From Candidatus Lloydbacteria bacterium RIFCSPHIGHO2_02_FULL_50_18 (GTDB lineage Bacteria; Patescibacteriota; Minisyncoccia; Phycocordibacterales; UBA6899), in assembly GCA_001821395.1 (NCBI GenBank), contig MHLM01000002.1, positions 1 to 11,892 on the forward strand: DNA of 11,892 nucleotides. The letters are read 5' to 3'. Positions within the stretch are counted from its first letter, which is position 1. Each line of letters starts with the position of its first letter. The notes beneath the pieces were generated by a model that ran no database searches, was not told the origin of the DNA, and saw only the letters and a list, made by a program, of their open reading frames with translations. Positions 65 to 11,892 of the stretch are shown here, in pieces. The translations under genes were made by a program, and so were the position numbers.

Positions 65-745
65 ATGGAAAGAAAAGATCCACTCATTGAAGGCGAGCTC
101 TATCATATATTTAACCGAGGGGTTGAAAAAAGAATTGTGTTTAAAAGCCAATCAGATTTCAGGAGGTTCTATGAATCACTCGCACAATTTAACACTACAA
201 ATGCAGCGCTCCACTCACGCACAAAATTCACTACAGAGAACAAAAAATCTGTTGATGTCGAGGTCGGACCTCGACATAATAAGGAACAAAAGCTCGTGAG
301 TATCTTGGCGTATACACTTTTGCCAAATCATTTTCACTTACTGTTGCGACAAGAGAGTCCGGGCGGCATCACTGAATTTATGCGAAAAATTGGAACTGGA
401 TACACGATGTACTTCAATAAAAAATATGTTCGAATTGGTCCGCTTTTTCAAGGAAAATTTAAGAGTGTACTTGTGTCACGAGATGAATATTATCAATACA
501 TCCCCCACTACATACATCTCAACGTACTCGACGCAACACATGCCGGATGGAAGAATGACGGGATATCGGTGGATCAGGCGTACAACGAATTAAGCGCATA
601 TCGATGGTCAAGCGCAAAAGAATATATCGGAAATGATAATCACGAGAGCATACTTGCACATACGGTCATCGATTCGCTTTTTGAAGAAAAACTTTTCAAC
701 AAAAAAATACTCAAGGAGCTGCTCGAGGATGACGCTTCACTCTAA
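65..745 (+). CDS. IS200/IS605-like Y1 (HUH) tyrosine transposase, REP-associated (RAYT-type), 226 aa
   Basis: The ORF is intact. N-terminal motif ELYHIFNRGVEKRIVF. HUH motif in LAYTLLPNHFHLLL (aa 81-94). GPLFQGKFKS matches the RAYT 'G-LWQ-RF' block. A C-proximal RDEYYQYIPHYIHLNVLDA block resembles E. coli RAYT DYRHHVDYIYINPVKHG, which carries the catalytic Tyr. REP-like palindromes flank the gene in inverted polarity. The GGAG ends only 1 nt before the ATG, so the SD context is poor. Confidence 0.85.
   Translation: MERKDPLIEGELYHIFNRGVEKRIVFKSQSDFRRFYESLAQFNTTNAALHSRTKFTTENKKSVDVEVGPRHNKEQKLVSILAYTLLPNHFHLLLRQESPGGITEFMRKIGTGYTMYFNKKYVRIGPLFQGKFKSVLVSRDEYYQYIPHYIHLNVLDATHAGWKNDGISVDQAYNELSAYRWSSAKEYIGNDNHESILAHTVIDSLFEEKLFNKKILKELLEDDASL
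255..277. repeat. Perfect REP palindrome (11-bp stem, 1-nt loop: ATGTCGAGGTC-G-GACCTCGACAT) embedded in-frame in the transposase CDS
   Basis: The core 19-mer at 257-275 is identical to the copy at 5480-5498. It encodes V-D-V-E-V-G-P-R-H (aa 63-71). This falls in a stretch of about 20-25 residues that is extra relative to E. coli RAYT, between the first beta-strand/helix and the HUH strand. Confidence 0.8.
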
Positions 746-795: not shown

Positions 796-2982
796 CTATT
801 CGCCCATGAGGTAGAGACGCCGAATCTCGTCAATAGAAAGTATGCGATTGTAGACACGGAGATCATCGATGGAACCAGTAAATTGTCTGGTGTTTGCAGC
901 ACTATTTCCTATATAGTATGGGTTCGAGTTACCGACTGGTGCTGAAGGTGTAGTAACTGATATTCCTTTGAATACTCCATCAACGTAAAAAGCAGGAGCG
1001 GTACCGGCACCACCATAGGTCACGAGAACGTGTTGCCATTTATTTTGGACAACGATGTTCGCTGCTGATACAGCCACGTTCGCACCATCAGTGGAAAAAC
1101 TGAGACCATTAGCTACGTTCGAATTATCACAAATAAAGAGGGTACTCCCTTTATCCACAATACGACCTCTCGCACCCCCACTACTGAAGTTTGTCGGGTA
1201 GATCCAAGCTGCAATAGTCATCTGTCCAGTGATATTGAGTGATGCCCCCGTACCAGCATTCACCGAATCATTCACTCCATCGAAACGGAGGGCTTGTCCT
1301 ATCTTGCCGATGGTGGTGGTCGTTGGATTCTGATTCTGAAGGCCGCCATGATTCCCCTGCCCCGAGACGTCACGCACATTCGGCATCATATCCTTGCCGT
1401 CGAAGGTCCACTCGCCCATAAGACCGCTGGTGAGTTCATCGCGGTGCGTGACATTCATTTTGAGCGATGCGCCCATGAGATAAAGGCGCTGCACTTCCTC
1501 AGGAGAGAGGACACGATCATAGACACGGACCTCATCAATGAAACCATCGAAATACTGCACACGGACACCCGAAGTATTCACTACAGAGGAAATCGTTAGT
1601 GGTACTGCTCCATTAAAAAGACTCCCTATGTTGTTTGCACCACTTGTCGCCCCGTTACTCAGTACTCCATCAACATAAACATTCGGATAGACTATTCCGG
1701 TAGCAGAGAATGTCATAGTAATAAAGTGCCAATTCCCATCGTTCACCGTTGCGCTGGATATTCTCGTATTAGCACCTACTCCATCTGCTGAGACTAACGC
1801 CCAGAGAACTCCTGCGTTTGTGCCATTTCCGATACTCAACCAGTATTCTCTGTCATTTCCTTGACTCTTGTATTTTCCGATGACCGTTTGTGCAAGAGTA
1901 GTAGAACTTGTCTTAACCCAAGCCGAAAGAGAGATACTTGCTGAGGGGTTAACTGAAGCAGAATCAGGTATGGTCACATAATCATCCACCCCATCAAAAC
2001 TGAGCCCCTGCCCGATCTTGCCGACGGTCGTGGTCGTTGGATTCTGATTCTGCAAACCGCCATGATTTCCCTGCCCCGAAACATCGCGCACGTTCGGTAT
2101 CATGTCCTTGCCGTCGAAGGTCCACTCGCCCATAAGACCGCTGGTGAGTTCATCGCGGTGCGTGACATTCATTTTGAGCGATGCGCCCATGAGATAAAGG
2201 CGCTGCACTTCCTCAGGAGAGAGTGCGCGACTGTAGATGCGGACGTCGTCAACAACACCATTCGTGTTCCGAGAGGTAACACCATCACTGCCCACAACAA
2301 GACCTATGTTTGTTGAGGCGGATCCAGATACTGTTGTGGTTCCACTGAGCACGCCATCAATATACAAATAAGACACGTTTCCAGAACGTAGACCTAGATA
2401 ATAATGCCACGTATTGTCATTGACGGTTGCTAAAACAGACGAAGCATAGTACAAGGTAGTGCCATTAGAAATAACAAAATCTAACTTATTAGTGCTCGCA
2501 TAACTAAAGCCGTAACCGGCTCCAGCGCCATTGTATGACCGTTTGGCAAGTATTACATTCACCGAACTGCCTTGGGAGGAATATCCTGCTCCCTTCATCC
2601 AGAGTCCTACCGAGAAATCACCAGAACCAAAATCTAGTGCACCAGAAACAGGGTCACCGATATTGACGTAAGCGTCAGTATCAGCACCACCGGGGAAAAA
2701 ATTGAATGCTTGTCCGATCTTTCCGATGGTGGCTGCCGGACCATTGGTGAGTGTTCCATTATTCCCCTGACCGCTCCTGTCGTAGACCGTCGTGCCGGAA
2801 ATATCTTTCCCATCAAAACTCCAATAACCGACGAGTCCGGAATTAAGCCTGTATCCCTGCCATGCATTCACCACGAAATTTGCGAGGGCCGTGCGCTGAA
2901 AAAGCGCAAACGTCATTGCAAATACGACGATGAATACCGCGAGGAAAAGAGGAATGATCTTTGGGGAAATTTTTTTATGCAT
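796..2982 (-). CDS. Secreted protein with three tandem LamG/concanavalin-A-like lectin (LamG_3-type jelly-roll) domains. Distal gene of the array
   Basis: The ORF is intact. I place the start at ATG 2982 (MHKKISPK...) because that N-terminus is shared with the paralog. The ORF track's 2991 is an upstream TTG. Sec signal peptide MHKKISPKIIPLFLAVFIVVFAMTFALFQRTALA, with an AXA cleavage site before NF. Three repeats follow the LamG_3 pattern: G-x-W-x-FDG ... SGQGNxG-L ... GKIGQ-x-FDG ... W-H ... LY-DGV ... D(D/E)VR-Y-R-LS-xE-(V/I). Stop TAG at 796-798. No SD motif upstream. Confidence 0.85.
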   Translation of the reverse strand: MHKKISPKIIPLFLAVFIVVFAMTFALFQRTALANFVVNAWQGYRLNSGLVGYWSFDGKDISGTTVYDRSGQGNNGTLTNGPAATIGKIGQAFNFFPGGADTDAYVNIGDPVSGALDFGSGDFSVGLWMKGAGYSSQGSSVNVILAKRSYNGAGAGYGFSYASTNKLDFVISNGTTLYYASSVLATVNDNTWHYYLGLRSGNVSYLYIDGVLSGTTTVSGSASTNIGLVVGSDGVTSRNTNGVVDDVRIYSRALSPEEVQRLYLMGASLKMNVTHRDELTSGLMGEWTFDGKDMIPNVRDVSGQGNHGGLQNQNPTTTTVGKIGQGLSFDGVDDYVTIPDSASVNPSASISLSAWVKTSSTTLAQTVIGKYKSQGNDREYWLSIGNGTNAGVLWALVSADGVGANTRISSATVNDGNWHFITMTFSATGIVYPNVYVDGVLSNGATSGANNIGSLFNGAVPLTISSVVNTSGVRVQYFDGFIDEVRVYDRVLSPEEVQRLYLMGASLKMNVTHRDELTSGLMGEWTFDGKDMMPNVRDVSGQGNHGGLQNQNPTTTTIGKIGQALRFDGVNDSVNAGTGASLNITGQMTIAAWIYPTNFSSGGARGRIVDKGSTLFICDNSNVANGLSFSTDGANVAVSAANIVVQNKWQHVLVTYGGAGTAPAFYVDGVFKGISVTTPSAPVGNSNPYYIGNSAANTRQFTGSIDDLRVYNRILSIDEIRRLYLMGE
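1391..1508. repeat. 118-nt segment letter-identical to 2105-2222 within the same LamG gene (linker 2 vs linker 1)
   Basis: Read by eye: TCCTTGCCGTCGAAGGTCCACTCGCCCATAAGACCGCTGG...CTTCCTCAGGAGAGAG is identical at both sites. Both encode ...SLKMNVTHRDELTSGLMGEWTFDGKD on the minus strand. Confidence 0.8.
1976..2127. repeat. 152-nt segment letter-identical between the two LamG genes (gene 1 linker 1 vs gene 2 linker 1 at 4444-4595). About 93% identity continues to roughly 2250/4720
   Basis: ACATAATCATCCACCCCATCAAAACTGAGCCCCTGCCCGATCTTGCC...GTCGAAGGTCCACTC is identical at both sites at a constant offset of 2468. The flanking domain cores differ. Confidence 0.8.
2105..2222. repeat. Partner copy of the 118-nt perfect intragenic repeat (matches 1391-1508)
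   Basis: See the 1391-1508 feature. Confidence 0.8.
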
Positions 2983-3017
2983 ACATGGCAAGATATCATT
3001 TCAGGGCTGCTCGATGC

Positions 3018-3092
3018 TCAAGCGCCACTTTCTGCTGAAATGACGGGGGCAGGAACGTCAGGAACAGGTGCCGTAGGATCGGAAACAGGAAG
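3018..3092 (-). pseudogene. Relic of a giant-gene 3' end (C-terminal about 24 codons plus stop) upstream of the distal LamG gene. Footprint of a duplicated 'fibre C-terminus + LamG' unit
   Basis: The minus-strand translation ...LPVSDPTAPVPDVPAPVISAESGA* matches the giant protein's C-terminus ...PVSEPTAPVPDVPAPVISSGGGA*. At DNA level 3036-3090 aligns with 5548-5602, 55 nt with 2 mismatches. There is no plausible start or upstream coding context. Confidence 0.7.
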
Positions 3093-3185
3093 CGTAGTGG
3101 ATCGTTTAAAATGTTTCTTTATATTATTCATTTGCATATATCATAACACATAACATTTTCATCCATTCTTAGGGAGCTACCGATG

Positions 3186-3204
3186 TCAAGGTTAAACCTT
3201 GACA
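3186..3204. repeat. Variant REP palindrome GTCAAGGTT-A-AACCTTGAC (9-bp stem, 1-nt loop). Same architecture as the main REP
   Basis: Perfect 19-nt palindrome. It shares GTC-AGGT...ACCT-GAC with GTCGAGGTC-G-GACCTCGAC. It lies about 40 nt downstream of the LamG2 stop (3243), and a T6 run precedes it on the minus-strand transcript. Confidence 0.6.
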
Positions 3205-3242
3205 AAAAAGGCCTAAAATACGGCTAAGAACATGGAGGGCTT

Positions 3243-5459
3243 TTATTTGCCCATAAGGTAGAGACGCTGGATCTCGTCGGGAGAAAGTACGCGGTTGTAA
3301 ATGCGGACTTCATCCATTCTCCCAGAAAATAGTCTAAGGCTATCAGCGAAACGTCCAGCAATATAAAGTGGAGTTGAAGCACTTGAACCTATACTCTGCG
3401 TCATGTTTGCAGCAGTGGTTACTTTTACTCCATTAACATAGAAACTTAAAGTTCCACTTCCACTGTAGGTTACGGCAATATGCTGCCAACGATTTAACGT
3501 AATGACATTAGTTGCATATCCATAGTCTACACTAATACTACCCGCAGCATTTACGCCGAAACCAAGACCGGCTGTTGTATTTGTATTATCCAAAAGAAAA
3601 ATATAACCTACATTACTGCCTAGTCTGTCTACAATTCTTGCTCGGTCTCCGAATGAGGTTGGATATATCCAAGCATTTACCGTTATGGCAGTTGTGATAT
3701 TGAGCGATGAGCCAGTCCCAACATTTATTTTGTCATCTACCCCATCAAAATTCAACCCCTGTCCTATCTTGCCGATCGTGGTGGTCGTCGGATTCTGATT
3801 CTGAAGGCCGCCGTTGTTCCCCTGCCCCGAGACATCACGCACGTTCGGTGTCATGTCCTTGCCGTCAAAGGTCCATTCGCCCACGAGGCCACTCGTGAGT
3901 TCATCGCGATGAGTGACGTTTGTTTTGAGTGATGCACCCATGAGATAGAGGCGCTTAACTTCATCGGCAGAGAGGGCGCGGTTGTAGGCACGGACCTCGT
4001 CAAGATTGCCGTCAAAGGGCATACTCCAATCAGAACGAGCGCCGACGACTAAGGCGTTTGACCCTGCGCTAATTGCACTGATACCAACAGTGCTCACTCC
4101 ATTGTCGCCCACCCCAACACCATTAACATACAGCTTCAGCCCACTCGCATTATTCGCCAAAAAAGTGCCGCACACATGTGTCCACACGCTCAGTTGAGTC
4201 GTATTTGACGGAGTTTCGATTCTCGCAGTACCAGTATCGGCACTATCCCAAATAGCAAAAGTGTACACGTCTGTTCGTCCCGAAGAAAAACCAACATCAT
4301 CACGAAAAAGAAGAAAACCGTTACTAGCAACAACGTCTTCCTTTGCAATGATGGCGTCATCGGATGTAATTGACCCATGATAGGCCCAGACACAAACTGT
4401 AAGTTCTGTCGCTGTATCTAAACTATTAATATCTCCCGCACTGACATAATCATCCACCCCATCAAAACTGAGCCCCTGCCCGATCTTGCCGACGGTCGTG
4501 GTCGTTGGATTCTGATTCTGCAAACCGCCATGATTTCCCTGCCCCGAAACATCGCGCACGTTCGGTATCATGTCCTTGCCGTCGAAGGTCCACTCACCAA
4601 CGAGACCCCCGGTGAGTTCATCGCGGTGGGTGACGTTTGTTTTGAGCGATGCGCCCATGAGATAGAGACGCTGCACTTCCTCAGGAGAGAGTGCGCGACT
4701 GTAGATACGAACGTCATCAACAATAACGTTGGCGTTTCTACCTCCATCGAGAGCACTATCGGCACCAATGATAAGACCGGAGGCAGTAGAACATGAGCCA
4801 CTTACTGTTGCGTTCGTACCCCTCACCATTCCGTCTCGATACAATGACATCATACCCCCCGAACGCATTCCGACATAGTGATGCCATGTATTATCATTCA
4901 TGGTGGCTGAAACATCATTAGCAGAATATGCTGTAGTGCCGTTCGCGATAGTAAAAGCCAGTATATTCCCACTGCCATAAGAAAATCCATAACCGGTTCC
5001 GACACTATTGTATGACTTTTTCGCGAGTGCTACATTCACCGAACTACCTTGAGAGGAATATCCAGTTCCTTTCATCCAAAATCCTACCGAGAAATCCCCT
5101 GTTCCAAAATCGAGCATCCCTGAAACGGGATCCCCCATGTTCGCATATGCATTCGTATCGGAACCATTAGGGAAAAAATTAAATGCTTGCCCAATCTTGC
5201 CGATGGTGGCTGCCGGACCATTGGTGAGCGTTCCATTATTGCCCTGGCCACTCCGATCATAGGCTGTTGTGCCGGAGATATCTTTGCCATCAAAACTCCA
5301 ATATCCGACGAGTCCGGAATTAAGTCGATACCCCTGCCATGCATTCACCACGAAATTTGCAAGTGCCGTGCGTTGAAATAGCGCAAACGTCATTGCAAAT
5401 ACGACGATGAATACCGCGAGAAAAAGAGGGATGATCTTTGGGGAGATTTTTTTATGCAT
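3243..5459 (-). CDS. Secreted protein with three tandem LamG/concanavalin-A-like lectin domains. Proximal gene of the array and paralog of 796-2982
   Basis: The start is placed at ATG 5459 (MHKKISPK...), which is the same signal peptide as in the paralog. The track's ORF runs to 5606 only because the frame stays open across the REP and the giant gene's 3' end. The first ~95 aa are near-identical to the paralog, as are the inter-domain linkers, but the cores of domains 1-3 are diverged and domain 2 is essentially a different LamG variant. Stop TAA at 3243-3245. No SD motif upstream. Confidence 0.85.
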   Translation of the reverse strand: MHKKISPKIIPLFLAVFIVVFAMTFALFQRTALANFVVNAWQGYRLNSGLVGYWSFDGKDISGTTAYDRSGQGNNGTLTNGPAATIGKIGQAFNFFPNGSDTNAYANMGDPVSGMLDFGTGDFSVGFWMKGTGYSSQGSSVNVALAKKSYNSVGTGYGFSYGSGNILAFTIANGTTAYSANDVSATMNDNTWHHYVGMRSGGMMSLYRDGMVRGTNATVSGSCSTASGLIIGADSALDGGRNANVIVDDVRIYSRALSPEEVQRLYLMGASLKTNVTHRDELTGGLVGEWTFDGKDMIPNVRDVSGQGNHGGLQNQNPTTTTVGKIGQGLSFDGVDDYVSAGDINSLDTATELTVCVWAYHGSITSDDAIIAKEDVVASNGFLLFRDDVGFSSGRTDVYTFAIWDSADTGTARIETPSNTTQLSVWTHVCGTFLANNASGLKLYVNGVGVGDNGVSTVGISAISAGSNALVVGARSDWSMPFDGNLDEVRAYNRALSADEVKRLYLMGASLKTNVTHRDELTSGLVGEWTFDGKDMTPNVRDVSGQGNNGGLQNQNPTTTTIGKIGQGLNFDGVDDKINVGTGSSLNITTAITVNAWIYPTSFGDRARIVDRLGSNVGYIFLLDNTNTTAGLGFGVNAAGSISVDYGYATNVITLNRWQHIAVTYSGSGTLSFYVNGVKVTTAANMTQSIGSSASTPLYIAGRFADSLRLFSGRMDEVRIYNRVLSPDEIQRLYLMGK
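4444..4595. repeat. Partner copy of the 152-nt perfect inter-paralog repeat (matches 1976-2127)
   Basis: See the 1976-2127 feature. Confidence 0.8.
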
Positions 5460-5479
5460 ACACTGCTGGCGTGCTGGAG

Positions 5480-5498
5480 GTCGAGGTCGGACCTCGAC
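5480..5498. repeat. Dispersed perfect copy of the REP 19-mer GTCGAGGTC-G-GACCTCGAC in the 70-bp gap between the giant gene stop and the LamG2 start
   Basis: Identical to 257-275. The left flank carries a GAGGTC duplication (gGAGGTCGAGGTCg). Confidence 0.8.
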
Positions 5499-5511
5499 AA
5501 GATGATGCACT

Positions 5512-5524
5512 GAGGCCCGGCCTC
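5512..5524. repeat. GC-rich REP-like mini-palindrome GAGGCC-C-GGCCTC immediately 3' of the giant gene stop. With 5480-5498 it forms a BIME-like tandem of related hairpins
   Basis: 6-bp stem, 1-nt loop. The context tGAGGCCcGGCCTCg parallels cGAGGTCgGACCTCg of the main REP. Confidence 0.5.
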
Positions 5525-5529
5525 GAAGC

Positions 5530-8500
5530 TCACGCGCCTCCCCCGGATGAAATGACGGGGGCAGGAACGTCAGGAACAGGTGCCGTAGGCTCGGAGACAG
5601 GAGCATCGGGAACTGGGGGCGTTGGTTCTGGGACAGGAGTATCGAGAACAGGAGGCGTGGATTCGGAAGTAGGAGGCGTGATGGGTTCTGAAACGAGTGG
5701 TGTAACGGGTTCAGTTACGGTAGAAACCGTTGATTCAGTAACAACGGGTACGCCCGACTCAGTGTTTGTGGTGTCACCGGTACCCACCTCAACAGTCGGC
5801 TGTTCTATTGTAGGTGGTGTTGAGTTTGCGCTCGTACTGCCTCCGGTAGCCCCCTCTTCAGGAGGCAATTCATCAAACGGAGTTCCCGACTGGATTAGGA
5901 GTGCACGCAGTCCCGCCTCGTCGATGCAGACACGCCCGACACATAATTTCTTTGTCTGCACTTCAGGGATCTTGAGCACACCGTTCTCATCGAGCGACCA
6001 GTTGTTTGCAACGCCGCGTAACGAGCCGATCTCAGCGATCGAGAATGACTGCATGTTGATCGATGCATTGGCGAGCATTGTATTGTTCTCAGTATCGACA
6101 GACCAGATATTCCCCAGGTCGACCGATTCGCCCGACACCGCACTTCCGAGCGAGCTCAGCTTGGTCTGCACGAATACGAACAGCTTCATTGTTGTCTCAT
6201 TGTTCACCGTAGCGATATATGGCTCAAGTGCGATACCGACTGTTGGCTCTCCCGGTGCGGCCTTCTTTCCTACTCCAATGACGGATGAAGGAGCGATCAT
6301 GTCTCCCACATGGATCGCACCGCCCTCAAGCGAGACCGTCACCGGGACACGTCCGACAAGCGCGATCGGGATCTGCCGTGCGTTATTCTCGGCAACATCA
6401 TCCTTGATATCGCCCGCGACTTTAAATCCACCGAGAATGACACCCGGATCAGTCGAGACAACACCGAAGAGAATTGGACCGGGAACAGTTTTGTCAAAAC
6501 GCTTCACGAACACGGGATGTGCGGGATCGAGCATGACGATATCGCCCGGCATAGCGGCGCTGTCGAGTGTCGGATACTGCTCGGCAACGTCGATACCGGC
6601 AAGCGATGAACCTTCTCCGTAGATGAACCCTCGCGTGCGTGCTGCAGCAGAACACTCACCACCATCATCGTTCACACAGATGATACCATTCTCAACAATG
6701 AGCGACGCATCGGGAATGTTGGATGAATAATACGGCGTCGTGGAACCGATATTCACGGTTGTTGAACCCACTGTGCCACCTGATAATGCTTCACCCGAGA
6801 TCGTGAGCATAGGGATGCCATCGAGCTGTGCGGAGTAGCGTTCTTTCGTTCCCACTGCGGATAATGAAGTAATGTTCATATCGATCCAGCTCAAAATACC
6901 CGCATCGTTCTCAAATTCCGCAGGACCCGCCTCAAGGTGGTCCACCGACATGTTGACGAACGATGAGGTGGCCGAGGAAGAAGTGGCGGTAAAGAAGTTC
7001 GCAAGTACCTCGCCGACCACAGAGAGTTTCGCCCATGGAGAACTCGTGCCGATCCCCACATTACCATTGTTCAACACCGTGAAGAGCGTGGTCGAGGCGC
7101 TGTTGGCTACTTCAAATGCCATTGAAGTTGCGAGGGTATCCCCTCCCCAGACCGTGAGCTTGGCATAGGGAGAAGAGGTGCCGACACCGAGCTTGCCAGT
7201 GAGTGGCTGGGTGGTGAGGGAAGTGTTTGTTGTGGTGGCAGGAAGGTTGGCAAAGAGGAAGTTGCCGATGTTCATCATGTTGCTCGAGGATACTGCGGGG
7301 AATTTGATGTTGTAGCCCATGCCAATGTTGTTGTAGCCCGTGGTGATGGCGGTGCCTCCGGAGTTTTGGTCATGTCCGAGGAAGATATTGTCATAGCCGG
7401 TAGTGACGTTGAGGCCGGCTTGATAGCCGAGGGCGGTGTTGTATGAGCCAGTATTGTTGAGGAAGAGGGCTTGATACCCCAATGCGTTATTGTATAAGCC
7501 GGTGGTATTGGCGTTGAGGGCGCTTACTCCCAAAGCGGTGTTGTATGAGCCGGTGGTGTTGGAGTAGAGGGCGCTTGCTCCCAATACGTTGTTGTATGAG
7601 CCGGTGGTGTTGGAGTAGAGGGCGTATTGTCCTAATGCAGCGTTGACGCTTCCGTTAGTGTTGGAGTAGAGGGCGGAATATCCCAATGCGTTGTTGCTGG
7701 AGCCAGTGGTGTTGGAGTAGAGGGATTGGTACCCCAATGCATTGTTCGCTGCGCCGGTCGAGCCATTCGTCCCAGAAAGTCCTCTGAGTGCTTGAAATCC
7801 TACAGCAAAATTATCTGTTCCTGACGTTGCATATTGCATTGCGTATTGACCCATCGCAATGTTGTTACCACCAGTAGCCGGTGATCCTCCTGTGAAGGAT
7901 CCGGTGGTGGTTGCTCCCGCATAGTAGAAGTTCATGCGGGTTGAAGAGGCGGCCATACCGAGAACGCCATTCAAGTAGTATCCACCGAGGGAGCTCGTGG
8001 CGTTGAATGCGGTTGCGTTTGGGGTGGAGGTTGGAGCGATAGTCGTGGCACTCGTCCAAGCGGAGAGCATTCCTGCAACACCACCGGAGAGTGATGCACC
8101 TGAAGTGAGGCAGGTGCCGTTCACGGCGAAGCAGCCTGCAGCAAGATTGATGCCACCGGTACTATTGAATGTTGAAGTTGCTGCGGTAAAGTTGATACCG
8201 TTTGTTGTGCCGAGGGAGAGGAGAGAGCCAGGAGTGGTCGAGCCAATTCCCATGTTGCCACTATTTGCGACGGTAAATACTTCATCAGACGAGTTGTTTA
8301 AGCTCATGATCTTGCCTGTTCCCATCTGGGTGGTTGATGCGAGAGCAACGGAGGAGGAGGCGAAGATGGAAAGTGGTGAGTATGCGACTTGTCCGAGTTG
8401 TTTAGTATCGAGCGTGAGCCGATCCCACTCTGTGTATTTCGTGCCGGTTCCGAGGTCATTGATTGACGATGCACCCGTGCCGGAGTATGAGTTGCCGACG

Positions 8501-11500
8501 AGGACGTTGTTGTCGGAGGTGGAGTTGACGATATCGATCGCATAGCCGGTGCCGGCGGTATCGACAATGCTATTGGAAGAAACAACGTTCCCGTCAGAGG
8601 TGATGATGTAGATACTGCTGTTCGCTCCCGCGGCACCGTTATTGTAGAGCGAGTTGGCGGTGACGGTATTGTTTGAGGCGCTGTCGAGGTAGAAGCCATA
8701 GTGACTGTTACTATCCGCAGTATTGCCGGTAAGGGTGTTGTTTGAGGAGAGGTAGATTTTCATACCGTCATAGTTATTTCTCACGGTATTCCCAGTGACA
8801 GTATTATTTAAGGAGGAGAGGAGGTAGATGCCGAAGTTTCCGCTGCTGTTGGCGGTATTGCCTGTGAGGATGTTGTCGTTGGAGGAGGAGAGGGAGATGC
8901 CGATGCTACTGTTGCTATTCGCGATATTGCCGGTGAGGGTGTTATTTAGGGAGGAGAGGAGGGAGATGCCGATGGCGTTGATGTTCGCGGTGTTTCCGGT
9001 GAGGGTATTGTTTGAGGAGGAAGAGAGGTAGATGCCATTGCCGTTGTTGCTATTCGTAGTATTGCCGGTGAGGGTGTTATCGTTGGAGGAGGAGAGGAAG
9101 ATACCATGGTTGGTAGTGGTGGCAACAGTAATATTTCTGATAGTAGAAGAAGCTACGGAGGTGAATCTGATACCGTTTTGGAAGCCAGTGTTACGCCCTT
9201 GATTTCCATCAACGAAGAGGTCGGCAATGGTGACGTATGAGAGGGTGTTGGCGGCAATAGCATTTGCCGTCGCGTTTGTTGAGGATGCAATATGGATGAC
9301 GGTGGAGTTCCCGAAACCGATGAGGGAAGTGGAGGTTGCCATCTGGATCTTGTCCCCTGCTCCGGTGGAGAGGTAGTAATCTCCTTCCATGAGGTAGACC
9401 TTGCCGCCGCGACCACCTGCGTATGCAGCTTGGAGTGCGGTGTTGATGGCGGTTTCTGCACCTGCGCCGTCTGCGACATAATCTGCGTACGCTTTGTTCG
9501 TGGAGTTTTGTGCTGCGACGGTATAGGTTGCGCCGTCACCATCGGGAGATGCTGCTCCTCCTCCGACACAGACGCCATTCACTGCAAAGCAGCCTGAGGA
9601 GAGTGCGATACCTCCGGCGAATGTACTCGTTGCGCCTCCGGTAACTGCAAGGTTTGAGGTGGTTGCCGTATTGGAGACGATGAAGTTTGAGGTGGAGGCG
9701 AGTCCGTTGTTGAAAATGGAGAAGAGTGAAGTTGAGGCGGAGTTCACTGCTTCAAATGCGCGGGAGGTGTCGAGAGTATCCCCTCCCCAGACGGTGAGCT
9801 TGGCATAGGGAGAAGAGGTACCGACACCGAGCTTGCCGGTCAAGGGTTGAGTGGTGAGGGTTGTTCCGGTGGTGGTCGCAGGAAGGTTGGCAAAGAGGAA
9901 GTTGCCGATATTCATCATGTTGCTTGAGGATACTGCGGGGAATTTGATGTTGTAGCCCATACCGATGTTGTTGTATCCCGTGGTGATGGCGGTGCCTCCA
10001 ACGTTTTCGTCGTGCCCGAGGAAGATGTTGTCGTAGCCGGTGGTGACGTTGTATCCTGCCTGATTACCGAGGGCAGTGTTGTATGAGCCGGTGGTGTTAA
10101 AAATGAGGGAATAATGCCCGAATGCGTTGTTGTATGAACCGATGGTGTTATTGGAAAGTGCACTGCCACCAAATACACTGTTAAATGATCCCGTAGTGTT
10201 TTCTAACATAGATGTTTCACCAAAAGCTGAATTTCCTCCTCCCGTTGTATTTTTTCCTAACGAGTTTGAACCAACAGCAGTGTTGTCACTACCGGAAATA
10301 TTATTGCTTAACGCCCCTGCACCAACACCGGTGTTGTATCCTCCGGTTAAATTTGACTGTAGCACTGCCTCACCGATCGCAGTGTTTATATTACCAGTTG
10401 TATTTTGCATTAAGGTTGATTTTCCAAATGCAGTGTTGAAATTTCCGGTATTCGCCTGTAATGCCCAATAACCGAATGCGGTATTATTAATTCCCGGGGT
10501 ACTACTTGTTCCCGCCCCAAGACCCATGAAAGTATTGTATGTCGTCGACGATGCAGTGATAAATTTTTGTCCATTCCAATAGACATAGCCATCAGTTACC
10601 CCAGTATCAATAGCGATGTTTCCCGCAACGCTGAGTTTTGCCCAGGGAGAGGTGGTGCCAATACCGACGTATCCATTATTTGCAACGGTGAAGACTTCGC
10701 TCGAACTATTGTTGAGCGACATGATCTTGCCACTTCCCATCTGAGTAGTGGACGCAAGCGCGACGGAAGAGGAGGCGAAGATAGCAAGCGGTGAGTATGC
10801 AACTTGGCCGAGTTGCTTGGTATCGAGGGTGAGGCGGTCCCACTGTGTGTATTTGGTGTTAGTGCCGAGGTCCTGAATAGAGGAGGCACCGATACCGGAG
10901 TATGAGTTGCCGATGAGGACGTTGTTGTCGGAGGCGGAGGAGGTGAGATGGATCGCATAACCCGTACCAGCGGTATCTTGGATGATGTTGGAAGAAATGA
11001 CGTTCCAATCAGAAGTTTCGATACGAATACTGCTGTTCGCTGACGCGGCTGTGTTATCAGCAAGCGAGTTGCCAGTGACGGTGTTGTTTGAGGAAGAGGA
11101 AAGGAAAATACCGTAAAAACTATTGTTATTCACGGTGTTCCCAGTGACGATGTTGTTATTGGAGGAGCCAGCGAGGTAGATGCCGGTGTAGCTGTTACTA
11201 TTCGCAGTGTTCCCAGTGACGATGTTGTTTGAGGAGGACATGAGGTAGATGCCGTAGTTGGTGTTGCTATTTACTGTATTCCCAGTGACGATGTTGTTCA
11301 AAGAGGTGGCAGAGAGGAGGAAGCCGTTGTTACCGTTACCACTGAACGTATTCCCAATGACGGTATTATTCAAGGAAGAGACGAGGTAGATGCCAGTGTC
11401 GGTCGTGGTGGCAACCGTAACGTTCCTGATAGTAGAGGAGGAAACGGAAGTAAATTGGATACCAGTTTGTGAACTGGTGTTCCGCCCTCTATTTCCATCA

Positions 11501-11892
11501 ATGAAGAGATCGGCAATTGTGATGTATGAGAGTGTGTTTGCCACGATAGCGTTGGCGGTTGCGTTGGTGGATGACGCAATATGAATGACCGTAGATTGTC
11601 CTGCTCCAATGAGTGATGTTGAGGTTGCCATCTGGATCTTGTCCCCTGCTCCGGTGGAGAGATAGTAGTCTCCTTCCATGAGGTAGACCTTGCCGCCACG
11701 GCCTCCTGCGTATGCAGCTTGGAGGGCGGTGTTGATTGCGGTTTCTGCGCCTGCGCCGTCTGCGACATAATCTGCGTACGCTTTGTTCGTGGAGTTTTGT
11801 GCTGCGACGGTATAGGTTGCACCGTCACCATCGGGAGATGCTGCTCCCCCTCCGACACACGTGCCGTTCACTGCGAAGCAGCCGGCGGAGAT
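5530..11892 (-). CDS. Giant modular surface/fibre-like protein, 5'-partial (at least 2120 aa in the window). Two tandem units of ~763 aa (tailspike/pectate-lyase-like beta-helix + stalk + 17-residue repeat array), a C-terminal globular domain and a Pro/Thr-rich tail
   Basis: One uninterrupted frame runs from the window edge to the stop at 5530-5532. The frame is still open at 11892 (translation ...ISAGCFAVNGTC... matches the internal repeat SSGCFAVNGVC), so the true start lies outside. GDGATYTVAAQ...GAETAINTALQAAYAGGRGGKVYLMEGDYYL is the typical N-cap of the Pectate_lyase_3/tailspike beta-helix family. NxxLTGNTANSNSxYGIYL repeats are PbH1 beta-helix coils. Confidence 0.85.
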   Translation of the reverse strand: MSAGCFAVNGTCVGGGAASPDGDGATYTVAAQNSTNKAYADYVADGAGAETAINTALQAAYAGGRGGKVYLMEGDYYLSTGAGDKIQMATSTSLIGAGQSTVIHIASSTNATANAIVANTLSYITIADLFIDGNRGRNTSSQTGIQFTSVSSSTIRNVTVATTTDTGIYLVSSLNNTVIGNTFSGNGNNGFLLSATSLNNIVTGNTVNSNTNYGIYLMSSSNNIVTGNTANSNSYTGIYLAGSSNNNIVTGNTVNNNSFYGIFLSSSSNNTVTGNSLADNTAASANSSIRIETSDWNVISSNIIQDTAGTGYAIHLTSSASDNNVLIGNSYSGIGASSIQDLGTNTKYTQWDRLTLDTKQLGQVAYSPLAIFASSSVALASTTQMGSGKIMSLNNSSSEVFTVANNGYVGIGTTSPWAKLSVAGNIAIDTGVTDGYVYWNGQKFITASSTTYNTFMGLGAGTSSTPGINNTAFGYWALQANTGNFNTAFGKSTLMQNTTGNINTAIGEAVLQSNLTGGYNTGVGAGALSNNISGSDNTAVGSNSLGKNTTGGGNSAFGETSMLENTTGSFNSVFGGSALSNNTIGSYNNAFGHYSLIFNTTGSYNTALGNQAGYNVTTGYDNIFLGHDENVGGTAITTGYNNIGMGYNIKFPAVSSSNMMNIGNFLFANLPATTTGTTLTTQPLTGKLGVGTSSPYAKLTVWGGDTLDTSRAFEAVNSASTSLFSIFNNGLASTSNFIVSNTATTSNLAVTGGATSTFAGGIALSSGCFAVNGVCVGGGAASPDGDGATYTVAAQNSTNKAYADYVADGAGAETAINTALQAAYAGGRGGKVYLMEGDYYLSTGAGDKIQMATSTSLIGFGNSTVIHIASSTNATANAIAANTLSYVTIADLFVDGNQGRNTGFQNGIRFTSVASSTIRNITVATTTNHGIFLSSSNDNTLTGNTTNSNNGNGIYLSSSSNNTLTGNTANINAIGISLLSSLNNTLTGNIANSNSSIGISLSSSNDNILTGNTANSSGNFGIYLLSSLNNTVTGNTVRNNYDGMKIYLSSNNTLTGNTADSNSHYGFYLDSASNNTVTANSLYNNGAAGANSSIYIITSDGNVVSSNSIVDTAGTGYAIDIVNSTSDNNVLVGNSYSGTGASSINDLGTGTKYTEWDRLTLDTKQLGQVAYSPLSIFASSSVALASTTQMGTGKIMSLNNSSDEVFTVANSGNMGIGSTTPGSLLSLGTTNGINFTAATSTFNSTGGINLAAGCFAVNGTCLTSGASLSGGVAGMLSAWTSATTIAPTSTPNATAFNATSSLGGYYLNGVLGMAASSTRMNFYYAGATTTGSFTGGSPATGGNNIAMGQYAMQYATSGTDNFAVGFQALRGLSGTNGSTGAANNALGYQSLYSNTTGSSNNALGYSALYSNTNGSVNAALGQYALYSNTTGSYNNVLGASALYSNTTGSYNTALGVSALNANTTGLYNNALGYQALFLNNTGSYNTALGYQAGLNVTTGYDNIFLGHDQNSGGTAITTGYNNIGMGYNIKFPAVSSSNMMNIGNFLFANLPATTTNTSLTTQPLTGKLGVGTSSPYAKLTVWGGDTLATSMAFEVANSASTTLFTVLNNGNVGIGTSSPWAKLSVVGEVLANFFTATSSSATSSFVNMSVDHLEAGPAEFENDAGILSWIDMNITSLSAVGTKERYSAQLDGIPMLTISGEALSGGTVGSTTVNIGSTTPYYSSNIPDASLIVENGIICVNDDGGECSAAARTRGFIYGEGSSLAGIDVAEQYPTLDSAAMPGDIVMLDPAHPVFVKRFDKTVPGPILFGVVSTDPGVILGGFKVAGDIKDDVAENNARQIPIALVGRVPVTVSLEGGAIHVGDMIAPSSVIGVGKKAAPGEPTVGIALEPYIATVNNETTMKLFVFVQTKLSSLGSAVSGESVDLGNIWSVDTENNTMLANASINMQSFSIAEIGSLRGVANNWSLDENGVLKIPEVQTKKLCVGRVCIDEAGLRALLIQSGTPFDELPPEEGATGGSTSANSTPPTIEQPTVEVGTGDTTNTESGVPVVTESTVSTVTEPVTPLVSEPITPPTSESTPPVLDTPVPEPTPPVPDAPVSEPTAPVPDVPAPVISSGGGA
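5533..5871 (-). other. Pro/Thr/Glu/Val-rich low-complexity C-terminal tail (aa about 2001-2113). Likely an extended spacer or wall-spanning segment
   Basis: ...TEPVTPLVSEPITPPTSESTPPVLDTPVPEPTPPVPDAPVSEPTAPVPDVPAPVISSGGGA*. Confidence 0.6.
5872..7074 (-). other. C-terminal globular region (aa about 1600-2000) containing the motifs GDIVMLD, GVVSTDPGVILGG, ALVGRVPVTV and GAIHVGDMIAPSS
   Basis: Non-repetitive sequence with mixed composition, distinct from the upstream repeats. The motifs resemble C-terminal domains seen on some phage tail-fibre-like proteins. The family assignment is unverified. Confidence 0.35.
7141..7360. repeat. About 220 nt at roughly 90% identity to 9781-10000. Both encode the conserved junction GYDNIFLGHD...NIGMGYNIKFPAVSSSNMMNIGNFLFANLPATTT...GKLGVGTSSPYAKLTVWGGD
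   Basis: Long identical runs, e.g. GCAGGAAGGTTGGCAAAGAGGAAGTTGCCGAT and GAGGATACTGCGGGGAATTTGATGTTGTAGCCCAT. The period of this segment is 2640 nt, different from the 2289-nt period of the cap, so the duplication is mosaic. Confidence 0.75.
7312..7851 (-). other. Array 2 of about 8 tandem 17-residue repeats of the same family
   Basis: aa about 1341-1520: ANNALGYQSLYSNTTGS / SNNALGYSALYSNTNGS / VNAALGQYALYSNTTGS / YNNVLGASALYSNTTGS / YNTALGVSALNANTTGL ... Confidence 0.7.
8512..9561 (-). other. Beta-helix module 2 (second copy of cap plus PbH1 coils), aa about 771-1120
   Basis: The same cap sequence is repeated 763 aa downstream of the first. The coils are diverged, e.g. NSNSHYGFYLDSASNNTVTAN. 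Confidence 0.6.
9351..9605. repeat. Internal tandem duplication of the giant gene: about 255 nt at roughly 92% identity to 11640-11892. Period 2289 nt = 763 aa
   Basis: GTCCCCTGCTCCGGTGGAGAG...GCGACGGTATAGGTTGC...CACTGC read in parallel at both sites. Both encode the beta-helix cap (GDGATYTVAAQ...KVYLMEGDYYL). Confidence 0.8.
9781..10000. repeat. Partner copy of the 7141-7360 junction repeat
   Basis: See the 7141-7360 feature. Confidence 0.75.
9952..10509 (-). other. Array 1 of about 9 tandem 17-residue repeats, consensus x-(Y/F)-N-(T/N)-A-(F/L/I)-G-x-x-(A/S)-L-x-x-N-T-T-G (51-nt period)
   Basis: aa about 455-640: NFNTAFGKSTLMQNTTG / NINTAIGEAVLQSNLTG / GYNTGVGAGALSNNISG / SDNTAVGSNSLGKNTTG ... 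The register is exact over 8 or more units. Confidence 0.7.
10912..11892 (-). other. Beta-helix module 1 (pectate-lyase/tailspike-like cap plus about 9 PbH1 coils), aa about 1-320 of the visible ORF
   Basis: Cap motif AETAINTALQAAYAGGRGGKVYLMEGDYYL, then repeated N-N-x-(I/V/L)-T-G-N-T-x-N-S-N-x-x-x-G-I-Y-L rungs. Confidence 0.6.
11640..11892. repeat. Partner copy (unit 1) of the 2289-nt-period duplication
   Basis: See the 9351-9605 feature. Confidence 0.8.

Follow-up and report, generated by a model that had tools for sequence, protein, structure and literature searches.

Beyond type IV pili, little is known of the means by which ultra-small bacteria identify and hold a host cell or substrate. 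Surface adhesins are important for the epibiotic growth of these bacteria (PMC10633639), and concanavalin A-like lectins are numerous in them and are thought to aid attachment, so the idea of lectin-like proteins mediating attachment in this group is already in print (PMC12911398). Here we describe a locus that encodes a giant fibre-like protein and, immediately downstream on the same strand, two secreted multi-LamG proteins. It lies on contig MHLM01000002.1 of a metagenome-assembled Candidatus Lloydbacteria genome (Patescibacteria, or candidate phyla radiation, CPR) from Rifle aquifer groundwater. The entire contig of 11,892 nt (11.9 kb) was analysed and is referred to below as the window.

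The C-terminal domain of the phi29 pre-neck appendage protein gp12 is an auto-chaperone that is cut off after folding (PMC3357383; PMC4690869) and is required for trimer formation (PMC3357383). Tail-fibre chaperone proteins of the S74 type are commonly annotated in cells of the Patescibacteria, and the haloarchaeal fimbrial protein TafC has been modelled with its LamG domain facing outward at the filament tip (PMC11821415). On balance we favour, without great confidence, a reading in which the locus specifies an exported, probably trimeric beta-solenoid fibre with a gp12-like C-terminal chaperone, co-encoded with variable secreted lectins. Most probably it would serve in attaching to glycans of a host cell or substrate, or in recognising them. 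As such it offers a concrete and recurring two-part candidate, a fibre plus variable lectins.

Layout of the locus

The window contains four genes: one plus-strand Y1 transposase, to which we return below, and three long genes on the minus strand. The initial annotation had described the latter as a co-oriented set with gaps of 70 and 260 nt, and these values proved exact. The three genes and the modules of the giant protein are as follows (aa, amino acids).

5530–11892, minus strand: giant fibre gene, 5′-truncated by the contig end, 2,120 codons, locus tag A3C14_01545 (hypothetical protein)
10858–11850, minus strand: beta-helix module A (aa ~15–345), of NosD/PbH1 type with 22–23-residue coils; Pfam Beta_helix/NosD and TIGR03804
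9793–10542, minus strand: 17-residue repeat array A and cap (aa ~451–700); phrog_6002 and phrog_4636 at aa 414–565
8443–9561, minus strand: beta-helix module B (aa ~778–1150), with a TIGR04247 stretch at aa 878–1057
7003–7920, minus strand: 17-residue repeat array B, cap and SPYAKLTV/SPWAKLSV motifs (aa 1325–1630), modelled as a narrow beta-solenoid
6166–6597, minus strand: C-terminal gp12-type chaperone-like (beta-tulip) domain (aa ~1766–1909), as modelled, beginning with a conserved I-D-V-A-E-Q-Y
5533–6165, minus strand: post-chaperone region with a small hairpin-plus-helix element (aa 1910–2010) and Pro/Thr-rich tail (aa 2011–2120)
3243–5459, minus strand: LamG-2, 738 aa, ATG at 5459–5457, putative signal peptide and three Laminin_G_3 domains
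796–2982, minus strand: LamG-1, 728 aa, putative signal peptide and three Laminin_G_3 domains, a tandem duplicate of LamG-2

The giant protein

The giant open reading frame (ORF) has no start within the window and is open to the last base. The part that is present consists of tandem units, each made up of a right-handed beta-helix of the NosD/PbH1 type, a neck ending '...GIGTTSPWAKLSV', an array of 17-residue repeats with the consensus N-N-A-L-G-Y-x-S-L-x-S-N-T-T-G-S-x, and a cap, 'NMMNIGNFLFANLP'. The initial annotation had foreseen a protein of more than 2100 aa with two beta-helix modules, 17-residue repeat arrays and a Pro/Thr-rich tail. All of these were recovered: the Pfam matches to Beta_helix (2.4e-62) and NosD (3.1e-55) fall in two separate modules, and DNA repeat analysis finds the coils as a period of 66–69 nt (8637–9105 and 11124–11322) and the arrays as a period of 51 nt (7427–7732 and 10067–10219). 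A contig from a sibling genome, L009, is 99.8% identical to the window across 7.4 kb, a stretch that takes in the giant and the initial 1 kb of LamG-2. Its giant, also 5′-truncated, is longer than 2,792 aa, with three beta-helix modules or more. In both cases the contig breaks off within the repeated module of the giant (window 11800–11892, L009 1–60), the sequence of which (CFAVNG...GGAASPDGDG) is present at aa 5 and again at aa 768; the number of modules may therefore be under-assembled.

The suggestion that the giant is related to phage tailspikes and fibres held up at the level of both profile and structure. The protein matches PHROG tail-spike and virion-protein families, and its repeat array is modelled by AlphaFold as a beta-solenoid, these models being of monomers and built on shallow alignments. 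The TIGR04247 match (85.5 bits against a subfamily cut-off of 300) does not make the giant a NosD copper-maturation protein, an identification we rejected as the two have only the generic parallel beta-helix repeat in common. We picture the giant instead as a modular beta-solenoid fibre of at least three tandem units, in which the narrow 17-residue solenoid would resemble the heads of trimeric adhesins.

At its C-terminal end the giant shows neither a membrane anchor nor a sorting motif. Export would probably be by Sec, since full-length relatives (P0009, P0018 and P0052) have N-terminal signal peptides (here and below, signal peptides were called by eye, with no predictor). In these three proteins a conserved 'INYQGKLT...' domain comes immediately after the signal peptide and may represent the cell-proximal end of the fibre.

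The beta-helices could in principle do more than provide length. Capsule depolymerases, polysaccharide lyases and glycoside hydrolases are among the structures closest to the solenoid model, and the beta-helix of gp12 reportedly digests wall teichoic acid (in the 2009 account of Xiang et al.). Such proteins have also been discussed in connection with polymer cleavage (PMC12911398). On this basis the modules might be depolymerases, acting as lyases or hydrolases, with the LamG proteins as carbohydrate-binding or glucanase-like helpers, the whole serving to feed a metabolically reduced cell by harvesting polysaccharides. We consider this quite unlikely in comparison with a fibre devoted to attachment.

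The C-terminal chaperone-like domain

The region from aa 1620 to 2010 of the giant matched nothing in Pfam and no PDB sequence. An AlphaFold2 model built from an alignment of 17 sequences was confident across aa ~1766–1909 (pLDDT 87–97) and poor elsewhere. When the modelled domain was used as a Foldseek query, pre-mature gp12 (3suc) independently ranked top; the modelled domain has the fold of the phi29 gp12 C-terminal fragment. The link to gp12 emerged only from the fold search and from scanning the family alignment, sequence searches with the C-terminal region having given nothing useful. Peptidase_G2, the IMC autoproteolytic cleavage domain, produced sub-significant matches in 7 of the 17 family members scanned singly (best E 3.5e-5).

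In a profile comparison with the gp12 sequence from EU771092, hhalign paired the I-D-V-A-E-Q-Y of the window with S691-D692-F-A-E-Y-F of gp12, a weak match (E 2e-4). Across the 17-sequence family alignment the E of the motif D-x-A-E-x-Y/F is invariant and the D and A are nearly so (≥90%). Cleavage of gp12 is said to occur between Ser691 and Asp692 (Xiang et al. 2009, Mol Cell). By analogy, the giant would trimerise starting from its chaperone-like domain, and self-cleavage just before Asp1768 might afterwards release that domain.

The domain belongs to a large family. With a threshold of E≤1e-3 a profile search recovered 22,435 cluster representatives (clustering at 50% identity), and with E≤1e-10 it recovered 10,245, the 150 best matches listed being mostly proteins of ~500 to 6,800 aa. 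A scan for loci, seeded with a 7-sequence core alignment (the 17-sequence alignment being too divergent), confirmed at least 443 in species-representative genomes. Most are from Patescibacteria; a few are labelled Bdellovibrionota, Gammaproteobacteria, Chloroflexota or Bacteroidetes, with the labels of some metagenome-assembled genomes (e.g. 'Saccharibacteria') taken as deposited. The size of the family suggests that a phage-style intramolecular chaperone is widespread in giant surface proteins of cells.

The LamG proteins

LamG-1 and LamG-2 each contain three stretches matching Laminin_G_3 (PF13385), with E-values of 8.2e-82 and 4.2e-76 and scores of 273.2 and 254.7 bits against a Pfam gathering cut-off of 27.6. 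Their N-termini are identical and resemble a Sec signal peptide, comprising MHKKISPK, a 20-residue hydrophobic stretch and ALA|N. This agrees with the initial view of two Sec-secreted proteins with three LamG domains each. The tandem copies are spaced ~2.4–2.5 kb apart at the DNA level.

The two proteins, and that encoded on L009, are mosaics. When the three are aligned, the first strands, last strands and linkers of the domains are 90–100% identical and the cores of domains 2 and 3 only 7–50% identical. A 293-nt linker segment is present in four DNA copies that are 79–93% identical to the reference copy. The L009 gene (9517–10939) equals LamG-2 through domain 1, has unrelated cores in domains 2 and 3, and departs from LamG-2 exactly at the end of the linker repeat, near window position 4448. 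Downstream of this gene the DNA is different, with no second LamG gene and no transposase in the 178 bp to the contig end. A further contig, L003, encodes a two-domain LamG-1 (889–2361, 490 aa) that is without domain 2 and is joined at the conserved linker repeat. These variants may reflect genuine recombination or the joining of repeats during assembly, and in the case of L003 the 98% identity outside the missing domain argues for a distinct strain. That the LamG cores are variable, as first proposed from the two copies, thus extends to differences between strains. A scan of metagenomes for the LamG 5′ end recovered only two already known contigs.

Conserved linkers and variable cores make a simple recombination design that could diversify binding specificity. 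There is no reverse transcriptase in the window, and a diversity-generating retroelement therefore cannot be invoked here. The duplication itself has left a trace: upstream of LamG-1 there is an 81-nt remnant of the giant 3′ end (3010–3090, 88% identical to 5522–5602), indicating that the duplicated unit ran from the giant 3′ end through a LamG gene. A 37-aa gene called by one pipeline at 3010–3090 was rejected as a scar of this duplication, made of the last codons of the giant.

Recurrence of the pairing

Eighty loci were fetched via the chaperone-like domain, and in 63 of them the sequence extends 3 kb or more past the 3′ end of the giant gene. Of these 63 other species-level loci, 8 (L013, L016, L017, L018, L021, L025, L037 and L074) have a multi-LamG gene that begins inside those first 3 kb downstream, in every case on the strand of the giant. 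Each such locus carries one to four LamG copies, nearly all of the partners have signal peptides, and the gap between giant and LamG gene ranges from 4 nt (L037) to ~2.2 kb. The remaining 473 kb of the fetched loci hold only 2 LamG genes, so that 0.8 would be expected where 8 are observed, a roughly tenfold enrichment (Poisson P ~2e-6) against a background drawn from these same loci rather than from whole genomes. Among the 13 closest loci, 6 have LamG neighbours. The recurrence of the giant-then-LamG order in at least eight other species argues that the two kinds of gene are functionally linked, and the initial idea of a recurring module is borne out to this extent. In two of these loci (L018 and L037) the LamG genes are followed by TGT.

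The giants of these loci vary in their other domains. Of three partner giants scanned against Pfam, one has LVIVD repeats, one an Ig-like domain and one no significant domain, and 17-residue arrays are common to the giants of 5 of the 8 loci. The constant element is therefore the C-terminal chaperone-like domain. We found no docking element shared by the giants with LamG partners; the presence of the small module after the chaperone-like domain is not correlated with that of LamG genes.

Giant and LamG genes might be independent neighbours, abundant and fast-evolving surface-protein genes that gather in the same variable genome islands and have no joint function. Multi-LamG proteins are indeed very common (1,903 matches at E≤1e-10 among scored candidates) and often occur alone, Y1_Tnp, AbiEii and GIY-YIG mobile-element genes adjoin several of the giant/LamG loci, and the search for a common docking element came up empty. 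Chance gathering would not readily account for an enrichment of this size, for the fact that in all eight loci the LamG genes lie strictly downstream of the giant and share its strand, the shortest gap being 4 nt, or for a duplicated unit in the window that took in the 3′ end of the giant. We therefore regard independence as unlikely, while giving it more weight than the other alternatives considered here.

Cellular context

The initial annotation had placed the locus in a cell rather than a phage, and the wider survey agrees. Related loci on long contigs are flanked by housekeeping and other cellular genes: RelA/SpoT, topoisomerase I, DprA and seryl-tRNA synthetase; BipA and a P-type ATPase; GAPDH, TGT and a LOG-family protein; ATP synthase, SecD, PfkB and an MFS transporter. 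No capsid, portal, terminase or tail genes were seen around them, and they do not lie in phage structural clusters; the window itself is short and its wider context falls outside the contig. Full-length relatives start with signal peptides at the N-terminus, the position that a virion-attachment domain would occupy. The chaperone-like domain, found in at least 443 species genomes, was confirmed in none of the 2.9 million viral contigs of IMG/VR by an equivalent pattern scan.

A remnant of a phage or tailocin, with the genes of the window encoding prophage receptor-binding proteins and the other phage genes lying beyond the contig ends, would explain why the fold and the PHROG matches look phage-like, and the short contig could hide such a setting. 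The 50,697 phage genomes searched also gave two weak matches to the chaperone-like domain, both in Campylobacter phages and one in an annotated minor tail protein. The flanks of the related loci and the distribution of the domain point the other way, as do the signal peptides of partners and full-length relatives alike, which fit export from a cell and not virion assembly. We consider a phage origin of this kind extremely improbable; the locus is cellular and chromosomal, and not phage machinery.

A model for the locus

Under the reading we favour, the giant would be exported and displayed at the surface as a trimeric fibre, and the tandem-duplicate LamG genes would give rise to Sec-type secreted proteins, each with three lectin-like domains. 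The fibre would give reach and the LamG proteins would supply variable binding specificity. A stronger version has the multi-LamG proteins docking on the trimeric fibre as exchangeable receptor-binding tips. If so, the locus would be a cell-encoded counterpart, in episymbiotic bacteria, of the phage 'tail fibre plus distal adhesin', with specificity for host or substrate re-set by the swapping or deletion of LamG cores through recombination at near-identical linker repeats. We think such docking quite unlikely. The initial proposal of a cell-encoded attachment apparatus with exchangeable lectins thus fares unevenly: the tailspike-like giant, the cellular locus, the recurring pairing and the variable cores all stand, and a direct fibre–lectin contact finds no counterpart in an element that follows the LamG genes from locus to locus.

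Several observations weigh against the favoured account as a whole. The N-terminus of the giant is missing both from the window contig and from L009. The chaperone-like domain of the window has no Pfam Peptidase_G2 (PF11962) match even at E≤10 and matches no PDB sequence, and the hhalign alignment with gp12 has a probability of only 46%. The residue before the conserved Asp is Ile in the window and Ser in gp12, and ~210 residues follow the domain, unlike in gp12. Release of the gp12 domain reportedly requires ATP (Xiang et al. 2009), which would be lacking outside the cell. The NosD beta-helix was found in none of the giants of the 80 related loci, the LamG-positive ones included. Finally, the association is facultative: no LamG gene adjoins 55 of the 63 related giants, and in other Patescibacteria multi-LamG genes often occur on their own, next to DsbA, exonuclease VII and PFOR genes.

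Neighbouring genes and repeats

The remaining features of the window are these.

5460–5529, minus strand: gap of 70 nt between giant and LamG-2, with a short GC hairpin and one REP-like palindrome at 5480–5498
2983–3242, minus strand: gap of 260 nt between LamG-2 and LamG-1, with a degenerate REP-like palindrome at ~3182–3224, an AT-rich stretch and the 81-nt giant 3′ relic
65–745, plus strand: IS200-like Y1 transposase (RAYT-like), a neighbour outside the module, with palindromes on both sides

A promoter and terminator scan, uninformative for both gaps, found no terminator-like site with a T-run in the 70-nt gap. The window contains no known RNA families and no tRNAs. The transposase scores 28.3 bits with Pfam Y1_Tnp (cut-off 23) and 35.9 bits with the RAYT equivalog NF047646 of NCBIfam (cut-off 80). 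An IS200-like Y1 transposase is also found just downstream of related giant or LamG loci in three other genomes (L008 10517–11224, L013 11037–11873 and L017 7793–8452).

The REP-like perfect palindrome GTCGAGGTC(G/C)GACCTCGAC occurs four times in the window, against 0.01 expected by chance, and among 92 loci checked it is present only in those of the same organism. Two of the copies (32–50 and 749–767) flank the transposase and another (5480–5498) is that of the 70-nt gap; the fourth (257–275) lies in frame within the transposase ORF, where it encodes ...VDVEVGPRH....

The order of transposase, LamG-1, LamG-2 and giant 3′ end is repeated at 100% identity in other assemblies of the same population. 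These assemblies reach no more than ~130 nt beyond the left end of the window (L004 2–133), into sequence coding ...LNHRPRRILHWSTPCVVFGRCCSSS*, which we take to resemble the C-terminal end of an IS30-family transposase. If an insertion sequence present in several copies lay to the left of position 1, it would explain why all assemblies break there. Over the giant gene itself lie a 394-aa antisense ORF (5438–6622, plus strand) and a strong positive GC skew (up to +0.32, 5500–11500); both probably follow from the Thr/Ser/Asn/Gly/Ala-rich repeats of the giant, and neither is likely to be a gene or a replication signal.

Comparison with known systems

We found no description in the searchable literature of the gp12/G2-type chaperone-like domain as widespread at the C-terminus of these giants, of the recurrent pairing of such giants with multi-LamG genes, or of the LamG linker-and-core mosaic. 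The closest known proteins differ from those of the window in several ways. Trimeric autotransporter adhesins such as YadA and UspA1 end in an outer-membrane beta-barrel anchor, for which the giant has no Pfam match, its C-terminus being Pro/Thr-rich; with no match to a YadA-type C-terminal anchor, this identity was rejected. LamG-1 and LamG-2 are like haloarchaeal TafC and the secreted multi-LamG proteins of Patescibacteria in combining a Laminin_G_3 fold with an N-terminal export signal. They were nonetheless rejected as TafC fimbrial proteins (NF052521), scoring 135–164 bits against an equivalog cut-off of 410 and matching the profile only at ~149–361, the LamG part; unlike TafC they are without a TafA-like donor-strand domain and a Tat signal.

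The giant shares its C-terminal fold with the phi29 gp12 pre-neck appendage, a tailspike classed as Peptidase_G2 in MEROPS and Pfam. In contrast to gp12 it is a cellular protein, over three times longer, with several tandem beta-helix and repeat units. Beyond the domain it continues for ~210 residues that include the Pro/Thr tail, and it has Ile in place of Ser before the Asp. It is also probably exported by Sec, so folding would take place outside the cell, without ATP. Closest in setting are the 'tail fiber domain-containing' giants (Peptidase_S74) of Patescibacteria, which come from the same organisms and have a similar size and similar repeat arrays, many of them being homologous to the giant over the 17-residue repeats (PF13884 is found among the relatives). 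The two differ in the intramolecular chaperone with which they end, the classes being unrelated: S74 in those proteins and a G2-like domain in the giant described here.

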